Shown here one piece after another: positions 541 through 34,318 of a stretch of DNA of 41,933 nucleotides. A model generated the notes under the pieces. The model did not search any database. It saw nothing but the letters and a program-made list of their open reading frames with translations, and was not told the origin of the DNA. The stretch comes from Clostridia bacterium (lineage in GTDB: Bacteria; Bacillota; Clostridia; UMGS1883). Positions within the stretch are counted from its first letter, which is position 1. Each line of letters starts with the position of its first letter. A program made the translations under genes and the position numbers. The stretch covers positions 1 to 41,933 of the forward strand of contig JAFYPR010000033.1 of the NCBI GenBank assembly GCA_017547445.1. Reading direction: 5' to 3'.

Positions 541-3474
541 TCCGCTTTTTCAAGGTGTACCAACCTTAAAGAGCTCAACCTTCCCCCTTCTGTTAAAGAG
601 ATTGGTTTTTCTGCATTTAATGAATGCTCCTCTCTTACAAGCTTTACATATCCTGTATCCTTACAGTATGCAGGTCACAGCATGTTTACAGGCTGCAGCT
701 CACTTGAAGAGGTAATAATTCCCGAGGGTATCACAAAAATTGCCGACAATGCCTTCTCTGATCTTCCCTGCTTAAAAACAATTTCCCTTCCCGAAAGCTT
801 AGAGGAAATAGGCAGCTATGCTTTCGGAGGCTGTGACAACCTTCGTTTTGTTATCGTTCCCAATAACGTATCAAAAATCAGGGACTCCGCTTTTGCAAAC
901 TGTGAAAACCTCCGCTATGTAACAATAGGTGCCACAAAGTGTGAACTGGAAGCATCCGTATTCCACGGAAGCGACAAGATGTTCATCTACTGTCAGCCCG
1001 TAAGCGATGCTGCACGTTATGCAATAGTAAACAACATTCCCTTTACACCTATTTCCTCCGAAGGGAACGATTATACGGACTATATCACAGATATGTCATC
1101 TACACGCTTCTACTCTGACAAAACCCTTGCCATGGTTGACAGTTATATTCCTCTGACACTGGAATATACTCTCTTCGAGGATAGGCTCCGTGCAGTTTCC
1201 GATGCAACCATATCCATACTCTTCTCAGAGAATGTTGAAGTAATGGAAAACCGTGTTGAATTAGACGGTGAAGCTATAACTGACTTCACCTATGACACCA
1301 ACGAAGGTGTTTTAACAATACCCGTTGAAAAATCAAGCGGCAAGCTTAAATTCTATGCATCTGTGTGGGACCACGGAACGGTTTCGGCACTTGCCTCATT
1401 AAGCTATTACTCCAAAGGCTGGCAGAATGAAAATATTGCTCTTGCATACCTCGATGCTCCCGCAATCAGGTTTGATGCTCCTGCAACAGTAAGCTCAGGC
1501 AGCCTTACCATCACAGGTGCTACAGGTAAGAGCAAGAAAATTCTCTTCACCATTAACGGAGCTGATGCAGGCAATACAACCGCCAGAAAGGACGGCACAT
1601 TTACTTATAAGCTTGATCTTCCCGCAGCGGAAAAGGAAGGTGAAAAGTTCACCGTCAGAGCAGCTCTTGCAGAGGATACAACAAAGTATTACGAGCAGAG
1701 CGTAGCCTATGAAACACATTCACCTGTTCTCACTAAATTCCTGATGAAATACAGCAAGGATACCACCGTTCCATTTGTAGACCTTCTGGACGATACTCAG
1801 CGGCTTACGCTCCGTGTCGACCCCAGCGACGGCTTCCGTTTTGAAATTAAATTCGACAACCCCGAAAAGCTGGGTACAGTCTTTGTGGGAAGCAGTAAAA
1901 ACGGTAAGCTCTCCAGGCTTTATGCCGTTCCCGTGGGAGAGGGTGGCGAGTATGTTGCCGAGGGCTTCTTCGACAATGACCCCAATTTCCTCCCCGGTGC
2001 CATAAATGTTTACTATAATACATATTCCGATCCCAACGACTATTCAACACCTCTCGCGAAGGAGGATTTGCCCGATGCATGGAAGGATGCGAAAAACGAA
2101 GTTTTAGAGCAAGGTGAAAATGTTTACCGCTCACGCATCACGCTTCAGTCAGGGGACGAGATCGAGTATACAGTTCACGAAAACCTCACCCTGGCGCAAA
2201 TTCGCCACCTTGTTTTAGGCGAGCCTATGAGTGCAGAGGATGACCCCGAGCTGTTTGGCTCCACAGCCTCTGAGCTTATCTTCGGTTTCTTTGATGACAT
2301 TGCAATAAACTTCACAAAGAACGGTGTTTCCACCGCCACAAGTCTGCATACTGCCGAAAACGGAGATCTGGCAATGATGGTTGAGGACGCTCCCGGCGAA
2401 ACCTTCTGGCAGATTGTATGGGACAACGGAAAGCAGGCATTCCAGGCATCAGCGGTGAGCTTTGCGGGAACAGCTGCAATCCAGTACTTCTCTCCCGGCG
2501 TAAGCTGGTCAAACTGCGGTAGCGCATTCGGTTTTATTTCAGATTCCGTAGGTGTTGTTATGCATGCCTACAACGATATGGTTTCCGTTGATGATGCCTT
2601 GAATGAAATCAAATCTTCCACGACCCTTACTGCAGAGCAGAAGAAATATGCAACCGAGCAGGTAGAAAAAATGCGTAGTGCTTACCTTGGCTTAAATGCA
2701 TTCAGGTTTGCAGGTGCAGTAGCAAGCTACGGATTAACACTTGCCTACGGCCCCGTAGTCGGTGCATTGGCAGGCATGGTATTTGACGGCATTGCCAATA
2801 TTATCGAAGGCTATCTTGACGATGCTATGGCATATTATGCGGCAGGCGGTCAGGGCTCTTACCTTAAATGGCTTATTGACCCCTCAGGCTACGTTTACGA
2901 TGTAATAACAAACAAGCGCATAAAGGGTGCCACAACATGGGTGTACTGTATTTTGTTCGAGGAGGACGACGATGCTACCTTCTGGGAGGATATCCCATCC
3001 CCCGATGAATACGGCACCCTGTGGCAGGCAGAGGAATATTCACAGCAGAACCCTCTTACAACAGATGAAGAAGGCAAGTATGCATGGGATGTTCCCGAAG
3101 GCTGGTGGAGAGTAAAATGCGAAATGGAAGGCTACGAAACCCTCTGGAGCGACTGGCTTCCCGTACCTCCCGTACAGACAGAGGTTAACCTTGGAATGTT
3201 CCCCGCAGAAATGCCCGAGGAGTATTATTACTTCGACTCTTTTTCAAAAGCTGTTGTTATTTCAAGCAATCTTGAAACAACCTGTACAGTAGCAGTAGGC
3301 GCATATACAAACGATGCACTTACAAGCATTGAAATTAAAGAAAACGTCACTCTGACAGGCTCTGTAACAAATGTTACAATGGACAAGGTAATAACAGACG
3401 GAGCGGATAGTGTAAAGGTATTTATCTGGAAGGATAAAGCCTCCATGCTGCCTCTTATAAATCAGGCGAAGTAA
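1..3474 (+). CDS. Large leucine-rich-repeat (BspA/LRR_5-like) surface protein, 5'-truncated by the window edge
   Basis: The frame is open from base 1. The N-terminal ~340 aa are repeated ~23-aa units of the type 'L..I.LP.SL..IG..AF..C..L'. A long beta-rich middle region follows, then a Gly/Ala-rich hydrophobic segment and an 'IDPSGYVYD' beta-sandwich-like C-terminus. A hairpin terminator follows the stop codon. Confidence 0.8.
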   Translation, partial: GMDQLKTVSLPQGLIEIGDSSFFICTSLEEITLPSSLEKIGDSTFFTCKSLQDISFPDGLDYIGNHAFYNCSALEEVVLPDSVKTIEYNAFYNCSGLKEINIPLSIDYTGSQIFKGCPLLTTMEVPEGITILPGNMFNGMDQLKTVSLPEGMVEIGDNAFFNCTSLEEITLPSSLEKIGDSAFSRCTNLKELNLPPSVKEIGFSAFNECSSLTSFTYPVSLQYAGHSMFTGCSSLEEVIIPEGITKIADNAFSDLPCLKTISLPESLEEIGSYAFGGCDNLRFVIVPNNVSKIRDSAFANCENLRYVTIGATKCELEASVFHGSDKMFIYCQPVSDAARYAIVNNIPFTPISSEGNDYTDYITDMSSTRFYSDKTLAMVDSYIPLTLEYTLFEDRLRAVSDATISILFSENVEVMENRVELDGEAITDFTYDTNEGVLTIPVEKSSGKLKFYASVWDHGTVSALASLSYYSKGWQNENIALAYLDAPAIRFDAPATVSSGSLTITGATGKSKKILFTINGADAGNTTARKDGTFTYKLDLPAAEKEGEKFTVRAALAEDTTKYYEQSVAYETHSPVLTKFLMKYSKDTTVPFVDLLDDTQRLTLRVDPSDGFRFEIKFDNPEKLGTVFVGSSKNGKLSRLYAVPVGEGGEYVAEGFFDNDPNFLPGAINVYYNTYSDPNDYSTPLAKEDLPDAWKDAKNEVLEQGENVYRSRITLQSGDEIEYTVHENLTLAQIRHLVLGEPMSAEDDPELFGSTASELIFGFFDDIAINFTKNGVSTATSLHTAENGDLAMMVEDAPGETFWQIVWDNGKQAFQASAVSFAGTAAIQYFSPGVSWSNCGSAFGFISDSVGVVMHAYNDMVSVDDALNEIKSSTTLTAEQKKYATEQVEKMRSAYLGLNAFRFAGAVASYGLTLAYGPVVGALAGMVFDGIANIIEGYLDDAMAYYAAGGQGSYLKWLIDPSGYVYDVITNKRIKGATTWVYCILFEEDDDATFWEDIPSPDEYGTLWQAEEYSQQNPLTTDEEGKYAWDVPEGWWRVKCEMEGYETLWSDWLPVPPVQTEVNLGMFPAEMPEEYYYFDSFSKAVVISSNLETTCTVAVGAYTNDALTSIEIKENVTLTGSVTNVTMDKVITDGADSVKVFIWKDKASMLPLINQAK

Positions 3475-3526: not shown

Positions 3527-4969
3527 TTAAACCATAACTGCATTTACGGCATCCTTAATTGATTTTTCCATAGCTTCCTTGCCGTATTTGTCTACTTCCA
3601 TCTTATTCTTTACTTCACTGTGAGTAAGACAGCCCGCGCCGTTTATACATCCGCCAAGGCATGCCATACCTTCAATAAAGTTATACTCGGGCATCTGACC
3701 TGCTTTAAGCTTCTTTGATGCCACTAAAAGAGCCTTCATGCACTCTTCAATGCCGTTACAAACAAGAGGCTTCGCTTCAAAGTCAATACCCTGCTCCTTC
3801 AGCGCCTGTGCCGCCGCTTCACTTACACCGCCGCTACGGGCAAAAATTCTTCCGTAATAGGAAGCATTGTCAAGGCAGTCCTCGTCGAGCTTTTCAAGCT
3901 CAATTTCACGGCTGTCAAAAAGCGCCTGCAATTCTTCAAAGGTTAAGACCTCGTCAATATGGGGCTTGCTCTTTTCTAATTTTGCTTCGCCCTTCTTTGC
4001 AGTACAGGGTCCTATAAATACAACTCTTGCATCCTTATCTGTTTCCTTTATAAACTTAGCCATCTCAACCATAGGTGAGAAGTTATGTGAAACATACGGA
4101 AGCATATCAGGCACCTGACTCTTGATATATGCCACAAAGGCGGGGCAACAGGATGTTGTCAGAAAGCCTTTTTCTGCTAATTCACGACTTTCCTTAAGTG
4201 CTACCATATCGCCACCCAGCGCCGCTTCAACAACAGTATGGAAGCCTAAAGCCTTAAGACCCGACACCACCTGACCAAGCTTTGCATGCTTGAACTGACT
4301 GTAAATGGCAGGTGCCACAACTGCATATACTCTGCTCTTGCCGTCATTGCTCTTTTTAAGCATGTCAATTACATTAAGGATATAGCTCTTGTCTGTGATT
4401 GCACCGAAGGGGCACTTGTAAACACATGCACCGCACTGTATACACTTACTGTTATCAATGGATGCACTCTTTCCGCCTTCAGCGCTTATTGCCTTTACCT
4501 TACACGCCTTCATGCAGGGACGCTCCCTCTTCACAATAGCGGAGAAGGAGCAATTCTGTGCACACTGACCGCAGTTTTTACACTTATCCTTATCTATATG
4601 TGCTCTGTGGTCGTGGTCAAAATATACTGCGCCGAATTTACATGAGTCTTCACAGCTATGTGCAAGGCAGTTACGGCAGCTGTCTGCCACAACCTCATAG
4701 CCTGATGCGGGACATTTGTCGCACGCCATAGGCAAAACCTCAATATTATTGGGGTTTTCTCTCGTACCGCCCATTGCCATCTTTACTCTTTCAGACAGTA
4801 TCGCCCTTTCCTTGTTTACACAGCAACGCATTGTGGGCTCATCACCGGGCACGATAATTTTGGGAATATCCAAAAAGTTTTCAAGCAAGGTATCATCCCA
4901 TGCTTCTTTTGCAACCTCCCTGAGCACCTGATATTTCAGATGCTGAACCTTTGTATCAAATTTTCTCAT
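3527..4969 (-). CDS. [FeFe]-hydrogenase, catalytic-type (H-cluster domain plus ferredoxin-like 4Fe-4S clusters)
   Basis: H-cluster motifs TSCCPAF, GPCTAKKGE and MACLGGCINGAG are present. So are two CxxCxxCxxxC clusters (CKNCGQCAQNC, CIQCGACVYKC). It is the last gene of the operon. Confidence 0.85.
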   Translation of the reverse strand: MRKFDTKVQHLKYQVLREVAKEAWDDTLLENFLDIPKIIVPGDEPTMRCCVNKERAILSERVKMAMGGTRENPNNIEVLPMACDKCPASGYEVVADSCRNCLAHSCEDSCKFGAVYFDHDHRAHIDKDKCKNCGQCAQNCSFSAIVKRERPCMKACKVKAISAEGGKSASIDNSKCIQCGACVYKCPFGAITDKSYILNVIDMLKKSNDGKSRVYAVVAPAIYSQFKHAKLGQVVSGLKALGFHTVVEAALGGDMVALKESRELAEKGFLTTSCCPAFVAYIKSQVPDMLPYVSHNFSPMVEMAKFIKETDKDARVVFIGPCTAKKGEAKLEKSKPHIDEVLTFEELQALFDSREIELEKLDEDCLDNASYYGRIFARSGGVSEAAAQALKEQGIDFEAKPLVCNGIEECMKALLVASKKLKAGQMPEYNFIEGMACLGGCINGAGCLTHSEVKNKMEVDKYGKEAMEKSIKDAVNAVMV

Positions 4970-4979
4970 ACCTATCTCC

Positions 4980-6155
4980 TTAAAAATAACTTAATTTAAC
5001 CCTCTTGCCCATCTGCTTGAGGCACTTTGTCAATTCCTCCACAAGATTCATCTTAATATTGAAATTAATGGGCAAATCAGGATTCTGATGTGCGGGGTTT
5101 ATTGCTCTGCCTACATAAAAATTAATATCCGTCGCCTCTTCAAACAAAAGCCGGCAGATAAGCGCCGCACCGTCACGCTTGAAGTTCCATTTTTCATAAA
5201 GCGTGTTTTCGCCGATATAGTCCTTTGCGTATTCAACCACCTTGTTAATGGTTATAACGCCCTCGGTTACCAGATCAACACCTTCAATCTCCGCAATAGG
5301 CGGAACATCGGAGGATTCAAAATTCAAGCTTGCCTTCAAGGGTTTTCCTAAATACTTTGCCGCAATGGAGCTTGTTGTACCTCCGCATACAATATGCTTG
5401 CCTTCCTTCGAGAAGAAAAGTGCCATCATTCTGCCCGAATCATCACGGTTAAAGGGCGGTCCGAATAATAAATTCATCGGCTCACGTTTTCTTATACGTA
5501 CCACACAGGCGGTTGTATCGTCACCGGGTTTTTCCCCATAGAGCTTATTGCATTCATCAACTAAAATGGTGGATAAATTCTTTGCGGTATATCCGCAAAC
5601 GCTCATCATTTCCATGAAGTCTATAATTTCTTCTCTCTTCCAGCCGAAATTATATGCCATGCCAATGCCCGCATGGGGGCAACCGTCACTCATTGCGATT
5701 ATATGGTCATTTTCGCAAAGGTTAATCCTTGATTTATATATCTTCTTACCGTCTATTGTCATTTCCGTTCTGGGGTAATCGTAATTTTTTCCGTCGCGAA
5801 GCATGATAACCTGAGGGTTATCGTACTGGATAATCTCTGCAACCGACTGGTCGATAAGATGAATAATCGTAAAGGTTGAATATGCCACACCTCTTACCGA
5901 GCAAACAGGGAGCGTTGCCGCTATTGTCTTTACGCATTCCTCCAGGGGAAGTCCTGCCGCCATCATGGTGGAAATTATCTTCGATGTCAGGGTTGACAAA
6001 ATACTCGCCTTAACACCGCTTCCCAGTCCGTCAGCCAGAACTATAACAGTAGATGTTTCATCCTCCTGCTCAACAATGTCAACGTGGTCACCGCAGAGCT
6101 CTTCACCGTAATGATTTATACTTTTGTATCCGATTTCAGCACACAAATCATTCAT
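4980..6155 (-). CDS. PP2C/SpoIIE-family protein serine/threonine phosphatase with an uncharacterised C-terminal domain
   Basis: Motifs 'VIVLADGLGSGVKASILS' and 'IIAMSDGCPHAG' are typical of the SpoIIE/PP2C fold. The start overlaps the upstream gene's stop by 8 nt. Confidence 0.75.
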   Translation of the reverse strand: MNDLCAEIGYKSINHYGEELCGDHVDIVEQEDETSTVIVLADGLGSGVKASILSTLTSKIISTMMAAGLPLEECVKTIAATLPVCSVRGVAYSTFTIIHLIDQSVAEIIQYDNPQVIMLRDGKNYDYPRTEMTIDGKKIYKSRINLCENDHIIAMSDGCPHAGIGMAYNFGWKREEIIDFMEMMSVCGYTAKNLSTILVDECNKLYGEKPGDDTTACVVRIRKREPMNLLFGPPFNRDDSGRMMALFFSKEGKHIVCGGTTSSIAAKYLGKPLKASLNFESSDVPPIAEIEGVDLVTEGVITINKVVEYAKDYIGENTLYEKWNFKRDGAALICRLLFEEATDINFYVGRAINPAHQNPDLPINFNIKMNLVEELTKCLKQMGKRVKLSYF

Positions 6156-7824
6156 CAGCTATCGACTCCTTCAACTTAGAAAGTGCAATCTTCGTTTCTG
6201 CGGCAGTTTCGCCTAAGAGCGAGGCAATCTCCTGAACAATTCTCATCTGCTTTTCAACAACCTTGTCTGCAACCTCTACTGTCTGGCGGCTTATGGATTC
6301 CTTCTTTTCTCTTTCCTTTTCTTCGTCAGTTACATCTCGCAAGATTGCAACAAGCATTCTTGACTCCTCATCATAAACGATGGTCTGGTCTGTATACTTC
6401 TTGTATTCGGCAAGATATACCCTCTTGTTCCTGATATCACGCTTTGTGTTCAACACCTCAACAAAATCTCTCGGGTCAAGAATTCTTATAACGGGCTCGC
6501 CCACAATATCCGACGCAAACCTTACATTAAGCATCCTTCTCGCCGCTTCGTTAATCTGCTGTACCTCCAGGCTTTCATTAAGTGCAATAAGTCCGTTAGG
6601 TGTATTTTTAATAATAGTATCAGAAAAGCTTTCTGTCTTTTCTTTCAAGAAGGGGAGACACATACTTATCTCTGCCTTGCCCCGGCATACGGCAACAGCC
6701 TTATCACGGCAGGTATTATATCCACAAAGTCCGCAGTTAAGCTCGTCTCCCTTTTTGAACTTGCCCATCTGCCCCAGAATAGCTTCTATCTCAGCATCGG
6801 AAGGATTTTTCACATTCAGCTCAATGCGTTCAAGGGTTTTTCTTATTTCAAATGCGGGAGGCTGCTTCACGTCAAAATCCTCTTCCCCTGCATAATTCTT
6901 CACTGCGATATAGTCCAGAACCGGCGAATACTTTTTATTACCCATGGCAGGCCCGTTAACACAGCCTCCTGCACAGGCAGACATTTCGATAAAGCATTTT
7001 GTAATTTTGCCCTCTTCAATCTCCTTCAATGCTTCCATACAGTTTTCAACACCATCAAGTGCGATATATTCGTAATCGGACGCATCGCAAGCCATAGACT
7101 TCAGAACACCGCCCGTAACGGGAAAAAACCTTGCACGGCTCTTCTCGCAGGAAGGAGCATCCGTCTCAAGCGTTACATATTCGCTCTTAAGCCATTCCTC
7201 CAGCTCTTCAAAGGTAAGAGCAGCATCAACAAATTCGCCGTAAAAGTCAACCTCATCCTTCTTTGCGATACAAGGGCCGATAAATACAACCTTTGCATCA
7301 GGATACCTCTTTTTTATATCCTCACCATGTGCCTGCATGGGACTAAGCACATCCGCAAGGTACATAAGAGCCTTTGGGAAATACTTCTGTATCAGCAAAT
7401 TTATACTGTGGCAGCAGGAAGAAATCACAACCTCTCTGCCCTCTTCACGGAGTATTCTGTCGTATTCGTTTTTCACTATGGTTGCACCTATTGCAGTTTC
7501 CTCAGCACTGTAAAAACCAAGCTCCTTCAGAGCCTTTTCCATTTTTTCAATGCCCACATCCTTGAATTTTGTAATAAAGGACGGCGCAACGCTGGCAATA
7601 ACAGGCGCGCCTGACTGAATAAGCACCTTCACCTTTTCAACCTCGCTGACAACCATCTTTGCATCCTGAGGGCATACTGCATAGCATCTTCCGCAAAGGA
7701 TGCATTCATTGTCAATAATATGCGCCTGATTTCCCGAAAAACGGATTGCCTTCACAGGACAGTTTCGTATGCACTTATAGCAATTCTTACAATTGCTTTT
7801 CTTCGATATCATACAGCTTGACAT
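6148..7824 (-). CDS. Putative sensory [FeFe]-hydrogenase-like protein with C-terminal PAS domain (HydS/HfsB-like, group C type)
   Basis: N-terminal 2x[4Fe-4S] (CKNCYKCIRNC, CILCGRCYAVC). Variant H-cluster motifs SSCCHS, GPCIAKKDE and MSACAGGCVNGP. An extra Cys cluster CGLCGYNTC..C..C. A PAS-like segment 'IIKNTPNGLIALNESLEVQQINEAARRML'. Confidence 0.8.
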   Translation of the reverse strand: MSSCMISKKSNCKNCYKCIRNCPVKAIRFSGNQAHIIDNECILCGRCYAVCPQDAKMVVSEVEKVKVLIQSGAPVIASVAPSFITKFKDVGIEKMEKALKELGFYSAEETAIGATIVKNEYDRILREEGREVVISSCCHSINLLIQKYFPKALMYLADVLSPMQAHGEDIKKRYPDAKVVFIGPCIAKKDEVDFYGEFVDAALTFEELEEWLKSEYVTLETDAPSCEKSRARFFPVTGGVLKSMACDASDYEYIALDGVENCMEALKEIEEGKITKCFIEMSACAGGCVNGPAMGNKKYSPVLDYIAVKNYAGEEDFDVKQPPAFEIRKTLERIELNVKNPSDAEIEAILGQMGKFKKGDELNCGLCGYNTCRDKAVAVCRGKAEISMCLPFLKEKTESFSDTIIKNTPNGLIALNESLEVQQINEAARRMLNVRFASDIVGEPVIRILDPRDFVEVLNTKRDIRNKRVYLAEYKKYTDQTIVYDEESRMLVAILRDVTDEEKEREKKESISRQTVEVADKVVEKQMRIVQEIASLLGETAAETKIALSKLKESIADE

Positions 7825-26508: not shown

Positions 26509-26559
26509 CTTGCTAAAGTAAACTACGAGCCACGTTTGGTGCAGACCACATAGCACTCA

Positions 26560-26735
26560 TCGATATAAATCTCTTACGAGATTTTCGATATGTTCTATTA
26601 GAACTCGATATGCCTATCGGCTCGATATGTTGCCTTACGGCAACGAGATTTATATCATATCGAAAACGAGTACAGCGAGTTTATATCGAATTTTGCGAAG
26701 CAAAATATATCGAACACGCAAAGCGTGTATATCGA
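26560..26735. repeat. Convergent heptamer array: 4x TCGATAT then 4x ATATCGA, interleaved with variable short hairpins
   Basis: TCGATAT starts at 26560, 26585, 26605 and 26622. ATATCGA starts at 26657, 26683, 26707 and 26729. Six of the seven spacers are perfect 4-7-bp hairpins, each with a different stem. Confidence 0.85.
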
Positions 26736-26751
26736 CTAAGGAGACTTTATT

Positions 26752-27102
26752 ATGGAAAACAACAAAAATATATTAAGAGAAGAAACCATAAATTTTGCAA
26801 TAGAAATATCTGATATTTGCGATAATATTAAAGGTTGTTCGGTATACATTAATCAGCTTTTAAGATGTTCTTCGTCTATTGGTGCAAATCTTCATGAGGC
26901 AAAATATGCTCAAAGTAAAGCAGATTTTATCAATAAGTTAGAAATTGCGTTAAAAGAAAGTTATGAAGCAGAGTATTGGTTGGAATTGTTATTTCGTAAA
27001 AAGAAACTTGACGAAATTACATACAAAACTTTAATAAACAAATGCGGAACAATACGAAGAAAGTTAATTGCATCTGTGACCACAGCAAAAAAGAAGCAAT
27101 GA
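26752..27102 (+). CDS. Four-helix-bundle protein (23S rRNA intervening-sequence protein / Avd-like family)
   Basis: 116 aa with 'SSSIGANLHEAKYAQSKADFINKL.IALKE..E..YWLELL', the family hallmark. RBS is AAGGAG. The coding region is AT-rich. Confidence 0.8.
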   Translation: MENNKNILREETINFAIEISDICDNIKGCSVYINQLLRCSSSIGANLHEAKYAQSKADFINKLEIALKESYEAEYWLELLFRKKKLDEITYKTLINKCGTIRRKLIASVTTAKKKQ

Positions 27103-27146
27103 ACTGTTTTGTGTCGTTGTTTTTTTGGTAGAAAGGACAAAAAAGT

Positions 27147-27788
27147 ATGAAGTGTCAATTTTGCAATAAGTATGCTGGATTTATGAAAGGCTTTCATTCG
27201 GAATGTAAATCTAAAGCAGAAAAGTGTATGAAAGCAATTCAACATATTGTCAATGTATATAATCAAGATGGCATAGATTTTGTTGATGCCAGGCAGGCAA
27301 TTATAGATTTAATAGCTTCTAATGAGTTTTATTATAACTATCTTGGAAATTGTGTACACACTAAAAGTGACATAAGAACTAATGAATTCTTGATACATGT
27401 TGAAACATCACTTTCTGTTTATGAATCCAAAAACAGAAAAACGATGGTGAGAACAGGTCTTTCTTATGCTCGTTATCCCAAATGGAGAATATCTTCGTGC
27501 AAAATCGAGGAAATGGCAACCGTGGCACTTACAGATAGAAGTATTTACATTATAGGAATTAACGGTGTTATGATATATCCATACAATAAAATAGTCAACA
27601 TTGGTTATGAAAATGGACACGCATATTTTGATGTCAAAACCTCTTCTTCATATCCTCACAGATTTAAAATAAAATCAACAGAGAACAAAGATTTATTAAA
27701 ACCTCAAAATATTACTTTGTTTTTAAACTTATTATGTGATTGGAACAATTCACAGTGTATCAGACCCCACCCACTTTGTTTGCATTAA
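27147..27788 (+). CDS. Hypothetical protein with an N-terminal CxxC...HxxC zinc-ribbon-like motif
   Basis: A 213-aa ORF in the low-GC island, beginning 'MKCQFCNKYAGFMKGFHSEC'. I do not recognise a family. The C-terminal half looks beta-rich, possibly PH-like. Confidence 0.55.
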   Translation: MKCQFCNKYAGFMKGFHSECKSKAEKCMKAIQHIVNVYNQDGIDFVDARQAIIDLIASNEFYYNYLGNCVHTKSDIRTNEFLIHVETSLSVYESKNRKTMVRTGLSYARYPKWRISSCKIEEMATVALTDRSIYIIGINGVMIYPYNKIVNIGYENGHAYFDVKTSSSYPHRFKIKSTENKDLLKPQNITLFLNLLCDWNNSQCIRPHPLCLH

Positions 27789-27832
27789 ATTTACTTTAGC
27801 GGAACAGGCGTGTCCCCATACCTTATTAAACC

Positions 27833-33473: not shown

Positions 33474-33516
33474 CCTTCCTCCCCGAGGAAGGTGTCAGCG
33501 CAGCTGACGGAAGGAG
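33474..33516. repeat. Two-hairpin repeat unit, copy S (downstream of sleB)
   Basis: ccttcct-ccccg-aggaagg, then t, then gtcagc-gca-gctgac, then ggaaggag. It is collinear with copy T at 34276-34318. Confidence 0.8.
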
Positions 33517-34275: not shown

Positions 34276-34318
34276 GCTCCCTCTCCGAGGGAGCTGTCGC
34301 CAAAGGCGACTGAAGGAG
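34276..34318. repeat. Two-hairpin repeat unit, copy T (abutting the thrS stop codon)
   Basis: gctccct-ctccg-agggagc, then t, then gtcgcc-aaa-ggcgac, then tgaaggag. Confidence 0.8.

Follow-up and report, generated by a model that had tools for sequence, protein, structure and literature searches.

What is the role of a row of identical heptamers, separated by small hairpins whose stems all differ, directly in front of a gene for a four-helix-bundle protein? The question is raised by a contig of Clostridia bacterium (GenBank assembly GCA_017547445.1, contig JAFYPR010000033.1, positions 1 to 41,933; this whole stretch of 41,933 nucleotides is called the window below), in which an array of TCGATAT and its reverse complement lies between ligA and the gene of an ABC exporter. 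We favour the reading, with our confidence in it evenly balanced, that a single strand of the array folds, most likely as RNA in the leader of the gene, and displays its repeated 7-mers as the binding platform of an oligomeric protein. What carries it is observed: the architecture of the array, the conservation of its structure, its association with the gene, the match between motif type and protein clade, and the translocation of array and gene as one module.

Architecture of the array

Is the array more than a chance cluster of short words? The heptamer occurs 13 times in the 41.9-kb window against 4.1 +/- 1.8 expected, a count reached by none of 100 shuffles, and 8 of the 13 copies are packed into 176 bp. 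Four of the eight are TCGATAT on the plus strand (M1 to M4, at 26560, 26585, 26605 and 26622) and four lie on the minus strand and read ATATCGA (M5 to M8, at 26657, 26683, 26707 and 26729). An earlier prediction made from the letters of the window alone, called the original prediction below, had described this convergent array of four plus four, and all of its eight positions were reproduced. The array is a real element and not a product of chance. Its parts, with hairpins numbered hp1 to hp7, and the start of the gene behind it are as follows.

26560-26644, plus strand: left arm, M1-hp1-M2-hp2-M3-hp3-M4-hp4, from motif scan, stem inspection and compensatory changes in 16 aligned elements
26567-26584, plus strand: hairpin hp1
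26592-26604, plus strand: hairpin hp2
26612-26621, plus strand: hairpin hp3
26629-26644, plus strand: hairpin hp4
26645-26656, plus strand: segment X' (gagatttATATC), the 3' strand of a 12-bp long-range helix, from a perfect inverted repeat
26657-26735, plus strand: right arm, M5-hp5-M6-hp6-M7-hp7-M8, from motif scan and stem inspection
26664-26682, plus strand: hairpin hp5, with tandem G.A mismatches
26690-26706, plus strand: hairpin hp6
26714-26728, plus strand: hairpin hp7
26630-26658, plus strand: candidate internal promoter, TTGCCT-17 nt-TATCAT, from a consensus scan only
26738-26743, plus strand: Shine-Dalgarno (SD) sequence AAGGAG of the four-helix-bundle gene
26752-27102, plus strand: 116-aa PF05635/TIGR02436 four-helix-bundle gene ('23S rRNA intervening sequence protein', IVP)

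The hairpins that had been proposed at 26567-26584, 26592-26604, 26629-26644, 26690-26706 and 26714-26728 are as described, and so is the 12-bp pairing of X' with 26562-26573 (GATATaaatctc), which is perfect. The long-range helix and hp1 are mutually exclusive. Three details of the original prediction have to be corrected. The stem cgata/tatcg drawn for the third spacer overlaps the motif, and relatives favour the flush stem gcc-tatc-ggc, which is listed here as hp3. The spacer 26664-26682 (aaacGAgtacagcGAgttt) had been left without a hairpin, but a conserved one with tandem G.A/A.G mismatches is found there (hp5), and the same mismatch type recurs across the array family described below. The array was said to end 10 nt before the ribosome-binding site (RBS), but its last motif ends at 26735, 2 nt from the SD sequence and 16 nt from the ATG at 26752. 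The candidate internal promoter overlaps hp4 and its U-rich tail, which is also flagged as terminator-like (26628-26645), and it is not conserved across the array family. Reading the array as a coding sequence was rejected, because the unit lengths are not multiples of three.

Conservation of the fold among Clostridia

Is the fold kept in other genomes? An exact-pattern scan with one genome per species matched at least 120 loci. Among the matches listed, 61 of 120 are hairpin-type arrays, so that the element is present in at least 61 Clostridia species genomes, and the carriers are almost all gut or rumen Clostridia (Oscillospiraceae, Acutalibacteraceae, Christensenellaceae and unclassified Clostridia). 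Loci from other genomes and metagenomes that were compared with the window are given by L-numbers. Many members of the family share the exact layout of four plus-strand motifs followed by four minus-strand motifs in about 175 nt. The plan is modular: a left arm of four units, each TCGATAT followed by a hairpin, ends in 'gag', and a right arm begins with 'ctc' and continues with four units, each a hairpin followed by ATATCGA. The arms are put together in an asymmetric 'canonical' form as in the window, in a symmetric form with a centre of 20-150 nt (L064, L073, L011, L009), or in a permuted right-left form (L118, L025, L098). M1 is usually flanked directly by a long outer hairpin, hp0.

The stems vary between units and between loci, with the pairing kept. 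For 16 aligned canonical elements, standard pairs were found in 87.9% of the cells versus 72.5% in shuffles, and 113 cells carry double changes versus 35; when the partner strands are slid as a control, pairing falls to 30-51%. Across relatives, 98.3% of the long-range helix is paired and 4 of its pairs covary, and RNAalifold reports 22 pairs with compensatory changes. Where the first motif varies to TCGAgAT (L097, L058, L071, L091), the central segment has the matching ATcTC. Within one copy as well as from copy to copy, the units are spaced by 15 to 31 bp, with no helical phasing. The variable spacing, the compensated hairpins and the covarying long-range helix together indicate selection for single-strand folding rather than for phased duplex sites. 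On this comparative evidence the hairpins are selected structures. The original prediction had set the array apart from clustered regularly interspaced short palindromic repeats (CRISPR), repetitive extragenic palindromes (REP), bacterial interspersed mosaic elements (BIME) and T-boxes, and in this it is supported.

Could the array act as duplex DNA, as iterons, a ParR/omega-type centromere or a two-block operator set? The original prediction leaned to such a reading, and eight identical short sites in two inverted blocks are indeed what it would look like. Dyad symmetry and the lack of a G.U bias fit DNA as well, and in arrays of the GTGAAAT type, a relative discussed below, the last site abuts the -35 of the four-helix-bundle promoter. 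It does not explain, however, why the spacing is irregular and unphased, and compensated hairpins and a covarying 12-bp helix have no role in B-form DNA. Nor are replication or partition genes found nearby: the loci are chromosomal housekeeping loci, with neighbours such as ligA, rlmD and tRNA genes, and the protein has no known ribbon-helix-helix or helix-turn-helix DNA-binding fold. Thus the likeness to iterons, ParR-parC and omega centromeres goes no further than short repeats in two opposed blocks. An iteron or partition-centromere reading is not supported, and we consider a duplex-DNA array highly improbable.

Is there any sign of the strand that folds? Right-type arms, read on the plus strand, have GAA/GNRA loops and G.A mismatches across the family; in each arm it is always the ATATCGA-reading strand that carries the GNA/GNRA loops and the G.A mismatches. 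Wobble pairs are rare. A strand call from wobbles or loop types was rejected, because G.U and A.C occur about equally often and because the two arms show the loop and mismatch bias as mirror images of each other. RNAalifold predicts a 'rod' of stacked four-way junctions, in which each left 7-mer pairs with its mirror right 7-mer; this rod is kept as a possibility only. Its pairs are invariant within a type, and the degenerate copies in L024, L037, L097 and L245 are not compensated position by position; M1 pairs instead with an extra ATATC segment, and in L042 one arm is of the TCGATAT type and the other of the AATTCAT type. A conserved central promoter and a role of hp0 as terminator were also dropped, for the signals are inconsistent across loci.

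The four-helix-bundle gene as partner

Is the gene behind the array its partner? The 116-aa product matches Pfam PF05635 (5.6e-20), TIGR02436 (2.8e-22) and PDB 2RLD (1.7e-34), the last being its nearest solved structure, uncharacterised and deposited with five chains. Avd of diversity-generating retroelements (DGR), a relative of PF05635, is a nucleic-acid-binding pentamer. Database relatives close to the 116-aa protein number in the thousands. According to the literature searched, open reading frames (ORFs) of the family lie inside intervening sequences of rRNA and, scattered, in cas operons; no function was found there.

Seen from the array side, an ORF census of 3 kb around the 61 arrays found a PF05635 gene in 6 loci plus one pseudogene, at a median distance of 19 nt. 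The second recurrent neighbour is a TRAM methyltransferase (4 loci) and there is no third; no transposase or integrase family is recurrent among the neighbours of the 61 loci. The array-linked proteins form a tight clade, 53-73% identical to the protein of the window. Seen from the protein side, 80 metagenome loci were fetched through this clade, and wherever a clade gene is preceded by at least 200 nt of sequence, a convergent array adjoins it in essentially every case. Genes at first scored as array-negative turned out to have arrays on closer look. In every case the gene either points away from the M8 end or is placed between the two arms (L261, L271). The original prediction had linked the array to the four-helix-bundle gene, and the link is strong, with a near-obligate array beside the clade genes. 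The question whether such arrays always neighbour four-helix-bundle genes receives two answers: nearly always when asked from the protein, no when asked from the array, where about 90% have no such gene within 3 kb.

What is more, the proteins follow the motif. The arrays differ by type in their 7-mer, called the linker here, and the protein clusters correspond near one-to-one to the adjoining linker type (TCGATAT, GCGATAT, GTGATAT, GTGAAAT, ATGAAAT, GCTAAAT). L075 is an example: a GCTAAAT array directly adjoins the gene, whose product shares 67% identity with another GCTAAAT-linked protein and 53% with that of the window, and there is an orphan TCGATAT array at a distance of about 500 nt. From one type to another all eight linker copies are altered in the same way, and therefore one common reader is called for. 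The spacer from M8 to the ATG is 12-22 nt, the RBS only, in nearly all TCGATAT, GCGATAT and ACGATAT modules, with one of 47 nt. Because only the RBS separates array and ATG in modules of the TCGATAT type, the array would be part of the mRNA leader of the gene.

The original prediction also named a 213-aa protein as a candidate for binding. Its ORF (27147-27788), which has an N-terminal CxxC...C motif, belongs to no family in Pfam, NCBIfam or PADLOC, has no relative in other loci with array and four-helix-bundle gene, and lies outside the 549 bp conserved among modules. It was rejected as partner and is cargo of the inserted island rather than part of the module. L242 (966-1240) and L248 (2845-3100) have a similar second small ORF after the four-helix-bundle gene (..DLRAVYEQLKDKYNLVW.. 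vs ..IIYDQLKDRYDLLL..), and in other modules the genes downstream of it are unrelated.

Some arrays hold an insert between their arms. In L009 (4818-4976) and L160 (about 5500-5650) it is GC-rich, non-coding and about 150 nt long, and it occupies the position where L261 and L271 hold the four-helix-bundle ORF.

Relation to Gut-1 and the linker types

Is the array a known RNA? Gathering scans found no rRNA, tRNA or any Rfam family in the window, and no curated family on TCGATAT arrays in the window and 36 loci. For the array region itself Rfam gave a single signal, a weak match to Gut-1 (RF01706) on the minus strand at 26647-26737 (17.9 bits, E 2.8); with a gathering cut-off of 50 bits, the array falls outside the family by score. 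Gut-1 was described from human-gut metagenomes as a likely noncoding RNA (ncRNA), not cis-regulatory and with no known function (Weinberg et al. 2010, PMC2864571). Note that the Rfam model spans only about 3 hairpins of one arm. When the seed alignment is extended into its flanks, it has the arms of four plus four, the complementary linkers and the long-range helix, a layout that the original prediction did not recognise. For example, the seed BAAZ01000095 runs UAUAUUCGCC-UGAC-GGCGA, then GCGAUAU and GUGAUAU units with hairpins, and continues with GGCGAAUAUA, which pairs with the start, and after it four AUAUCAC units. By this extended anatomy and by the same neighbouring gene, the window array belongs with Gut-1.

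The linkers make the connection gradual. In the GTGAAAT, GTGATAT and ATGAAAT types the Gut-1 model matches both arms, on opposite strands, with 50-66 bits; relatives of the GCGATAT type score 31 bits and TCGATAT scores 18. The window linker UCGAUAU agrees with the Gut-1 linker (G/A)UGA(A/U)AU at 5 of 7 positions in an identical unit architecture, and the intermediates GCGAUAU, ACGAUAU and GUGAUAU bridge the two. Other convergent linkers are GTGAAGT/ACTTCAC (L073), GCTAAAT/ATTTAGC (L075), GTGATAT (L037, L022), ATGAAAT (L019), AATTCAT (L042, L118) and GCGATAT (L118). At least nine linker 'flavours' exist, with a left-sense consensus of about NYGAWAT, and several coexist in one genome or contig (L118, L073, L075, L037). 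The window array and Gut-1 are built from one kind of unit, in which a variable hairpin comes after a conserved 7-nt linker, both occur in gut Clostridia, and bona fide Gut-1 matches adjoin the same PF05635 protein clade. They differ in the linker, GUGA(A/U)AU there and UCGAUAU here, and Gut-1 as published comes without the second arm, the long-range helix, the gene association or a function. By its anatomy, the window array is a divergent UCGAUAU-linker variant of the Gut-1 kind, outside the curated model.

Does the array then work without the gene, as a stand-alone small RNA or as a bidirectional 3'-end element that stabilises or terminates transcripts? The classification of Gut-1 as a likely ncRNA (Weinberg 2010, PMC2864571) would suit this. 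Most arrays have no gene and sit between convergent genes or after terminator-like hairpins, and a transcript from either side meets the same layout. However, the near-obligate array beside the clade genes and the match of linker and clade are left unexplained, and no consistent promoter or U-tract terminator delimits the element. We judge an element unrelated to the neighbouring gene to be very unlikely.

How do such arrays change? Strain variants of a GTGATAT array are seen in about 34 loci of one human-gut species (L272-L319, about 2250-2490), where whole units are lost, or one hairpin is swapped for an unrelated one, with the linkers unchanged. These arrays evolve unit by unit.

Insertion and movement of the module

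How did the array and its gene come to lie between ligA and the ABC exporter? The features that bear on this are given below.

26523-27789, plus strand: low-GC inserted block with the array, the four-helix-bundle gene and the 213-aa ORF, from the GC profile and relatives
26512-26522 and 27790-27800: perfect 11-bp inverted repeat (GCTAAAGTAAA / TTTACTTTAGC) bracketing the block
26531-26559, plus strand: rlmD 3'-end remnant (homologous to the final codons and stop codon of rlmD in L327, L328 and L330), which is the 3' half of hp0 and the left end of the translocated module, from blastn

The GC content of the block is 0.30-0.33 versus about 0.45 in the flanks, so the low-GC island seen in the original prediction is real. 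Relatives with 73-89% identical LigA have the same gene order, with ligA directly before the ABC exporter (16-172 nt), and because of this the block is taken as an insertion. The array, the four-helix-bundle gene and the 213-aa ORF are absent from that spacer in those relatives; the comparison of this spacer, a check proposed with the original prediction, found array and gene missing together. The 11-bp repeat has only its two copies in the window versus 0.02 expected. At the left site of L322, a relative without the insert, one similar copy, attaaagtaaac, is present.

Then where did the module come from? The closest protein relatives (88-92% identical) are elsewhere in other genomes, each directly behind rlmD, whose products match the TIGR00479 equivalog with 422-447 bits and whose stop codon is 7 nt from M1. 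Positions 26547-27095 of the window (549 bp, array and gene) are 84-88% identical to these rlmD-linked modules. The homology starts at 26531 (L330) or 26547 (L327, L328), among the final codons of rlmD, and extends up to the four-helix-bundle stop codon. As judged from these alignments, the module was evidently copied from an rlmD locus, together with about 15-30 nt of the rlmD 3' end, into the spacer between ligA and the ABC exporter. The order rlmD, array, gene is found in about 10 of 16 distinct modules of the TCGATAT or GCGATAT type, and the RlmD proteins of rlmD-linked modules are mutually only 35-47% identical.

Gut-1-proper types (GTGAAAT, GTGATAT, ATGAAAT, GCTAAAT) are placed otherwise, directly downstream of tRNA, tmRNA or 6S RNA genes and in the same orientation. 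Such stable-RNA-linked modules are seen in L272 (2172-2248), L273 (531-606), L276 (1925-2270), L287 (1883-2229), L267, L279 and L281, and the stable-RNA gene differs each time.

Is there a functional reason for the place behind rlmD? RlmD modifies 23S rRNA at 1933-GCGAAAU*-1939, which is followed by the helix GUCGG...CCGAC (PMC6235398). If the left-arm units mimicked this site, the array might titrate RlmD, sense it or be methylated by it and so couple both genes. The recurrent position behind genes for such diverged RlmD proteins would be accounted for, as would the likeness of the NYGAWAU linkers to GCGAAAU (6 of 7 positions for GCGAUAU and GUGAAAU, 5 of 7 for UCGAUAU), and the protein family owes its name to 23S rRNA intervening sequences. 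But the resemblance is short (a rough chance estimate is a few percent), it stops short of the enzyme-contacted U1940-C1942 (PMC6235398), and A1937 is replaced by U in the very types linked to rlmD. Gut-1-proper modules follow stable-RNA genes instead, the window copy and most orphan arrays are not near rlmD, and the synteny is explicable by one old, vertically inherited insertion. An RlmD-linked regulatory RNA therefore seems quite unlikely to us.

The movement raises the main rival, a DNA system similar to REPIN and RAYT, the hairpins formed by REP pairs and the REP-associated tyrosine transposases. The arrays would be non-autonomous interspersed repeats folding as single-stranded DNA (ssDNA), the four-helix-bundle protein would be their maintenance or mobilisation factor, and the window would hold a moved 'master' copy. 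A cognate gene flanked by or adjoining repeats of a clade-specific motif is what such a system has, and here too many orphan copies are dispersed in intergenic regions, often between convergent genes (43 vs 25). The translocated module with its piece of rlmD, the near-identical copies in consecutive spacers (L084, L099) and the PF05635 ORFs known as passengers of rRNA intervening sequences and scattered inside operons point the same way. So do the dyad symmetry, the very few G.U pairs, the GNA triloops and the tandem G.A mismatches, which are typical of DNA minihairpins. On the other hand, family searches found no HUH/Y1, DDE or recombinase domain in the 116-aa protein, no target-site duplication was seen, and stems that differ between units and copies and are still compensated speak for long-term structural selection rather than recent copying. 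One array copy is present in 42 kb here, and viral contigs are not enriched for arrays. We regard this system as unlikely, though less so than the other alternatives.

Compared with REP, BIME and REPIN-RAYT elements proper, the array is alike in the short motif with a hairpin, the inverted pairs and the clade-matched protein gene next to or between the repeats. It differs in having no GTAG motif, hairpin sequences that are not conserved, four units per arm, an apparently low copy number, and a 116-aa four-helix bundle in place of a Y1/HUH transposase. The REP/BIME class was rejected because the stems all differ, the motif TCGATAT is not of the GTAG type and the copy is single in 42 kb. The REPIN-RAYT class was rejected because no Y1 (IS200/IS605-like) transposase was found in the 61-locus census, in which only PF05635 and RlmD recur. 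CRISPR was rejected as well: the constant unit is 7 nt, the 'spacers' are hairpins of 8-38 nt, and no cas genes are among the neighbours. A phage origin was discarded, since real arrays make up only 3-4 of 119 viral pattern matches.

Two loci carry double copies. L084 has two near-identical arrays (4507-4682 and 6170-6345) in consecutive spacers flanking an HD-domain gene, and L099 has two (571-747 and 4988-5162) in consecutive spacers flanking metK and capsule genes. Such pairs suggest that arrays are duplicated locally or undergo gene conversion.

A proposed binding platform for an oligomeric protein

How would the array work as a binding platform in the leader of the gene, the reading we favour? 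It would be transcribed from upstream (from ligA here, from rlmD elsewhere) or from a weak internal promoter. Local folding of the hairpins would cancel their variable length and bring the 7-mers side by side, so that the row of identical 7-mers could serve as the cognate platform for the oligomeric four-helix-bundle protein. On its own leader the protein might act in autoregulation or be assembled in cis, and in trans it might act on orphan arrays in 5' leaders or between convergent genes. By pairing in alternative ways, the complementary arm and the long-range helix may hide or expose the 7-mers. We infer that the array acts as RNA rather than as ssDNA, that the protein binds it directly and that the outcome is regulatory. 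Of the suggestions in the original prediction, the multi-hairpin protein-binding nucleic acid is the best working model, supported by the conservation of the folding and the gene link.

Several points weigh against this reading. The rare, unbiased wobbles and the mirror loop bias fit a dyad-symmetric function at the DNA level or in two directions equally well. Hairpins with a GNA triloop are a classic example of stability in ssDNA. The GTGAAAT and GTGATAT types have a strong promoter, TTGAAA-17 nt-TATAAT, between array and gene, and because of it their array need not be in the mRNA. The roughly 90% of TCGATAT arrays that lack a four-helix-bundle gene within 3 kb have to be explained, and the match of clade and linker could in part be simple co-inheritance of two linked features. 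PF05635 proteins are not known to bind specific sequences.

Is anything similar known? The leaders bound by TRAP, the CsrB/RsmZ sponges and the repeat RNAs of type III toxin-antitoxin (TA) systems likewise present a repeated single-stranded motif at regular units to a ring or oligomer, with stems that differ, so that each unit folds independently, and in type III TA loci the repeats lie directly upstream of the partner gene, as here. The array is unlike these multi-site ligands in that the motif lies between hairpins and not in loops, that a second arm carries the complementary motif, that its units are not identical direct repeats, and that the partner is no endoribonuclease and has no known RNA-binding fold. 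A type III TA system was rejected, with differing units, inverted arms, a PF05635 protein that is not of the ToxN/AbiE type and no PADLOC hit. The 23S intervening sequences share the protein family (the PF05635 ORF, 5.6e-20) and are also small inserted modules; the ORF between complementary structured arms in L261 and L271 resembles an ORF in a stem-loop. However, the arms of the array are 7-mers and hairpins instead of one long stem. An intervening-sequence insertion in 23S was rejected, as there is no rRNA in the window or in the related loci examined.

What, then, would be gained? The two-armed anatomy, the near-obligate clade-matched PF05635 partner and the movement as a 549-bp module usually behind rlmD appear to be new in the searched literature, which gave only noise on the heptamer and no functional follow-up on Gut-1 or PF05635. 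Since 2010 Gut-1, whose only known source is human-gut metagenomes, has stood as an orphan among candidate RNAs. Its association with the gene turns two unknowns into one testable pair. PF05635/TIGR02436 is a very large family of unknown function that includes the intervening-sequence proteins, DGR Avd relatives and small operon genes. Tentatively, and with some doubt, we propose as a wider possibility that PF05635 IVP proteins are sequence-programmed readers of 7-nt linkers between hairpins, each clade with its own linker, and that proteins and arrays make up a widespread, so far unrecognised class of modules in gut Clostridia, spreading in units of about 550 bp and possibly interfacing with rRNA modification. 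The last part is suggested because modules lie behind rlmD and linkers resemble the U1939 site, and the recurrent rlmD and tRNA/tmRNA contexts may indicate a link to stable-RNA biology. If true, this would give a function to both Gut-1 and the large PF05635 family, amount to a new mode of modular, 7-nt-coded recognition, and might explain what intervening-sequence proteins do.

Further repeats near the arrays

Two other conserved sequences were seen in the course of the comparison. Solo left arms in the unrelated loci L005 (about 3150-3215) and L042 (about 1670-1700) have a conserved gagacaaggggacggttct(g/a)ttgtcttg upstream, which is preceded by a promoter-like site and matches no Rfam family at gathering. 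The window also contains another small two-hairpin repeat, GGCTCC..GGGAGC-TG-TCNNC..GNNGA-CTGA(A/G)GG, at 33474-33508 and 34276-34318. It belongs to no Rfam family, recurs in L023 (about 2870-2930), L068, L078 (about 2990-3050) and L143 (about 5085-5140), and adjoins a heptamer array in several loci.

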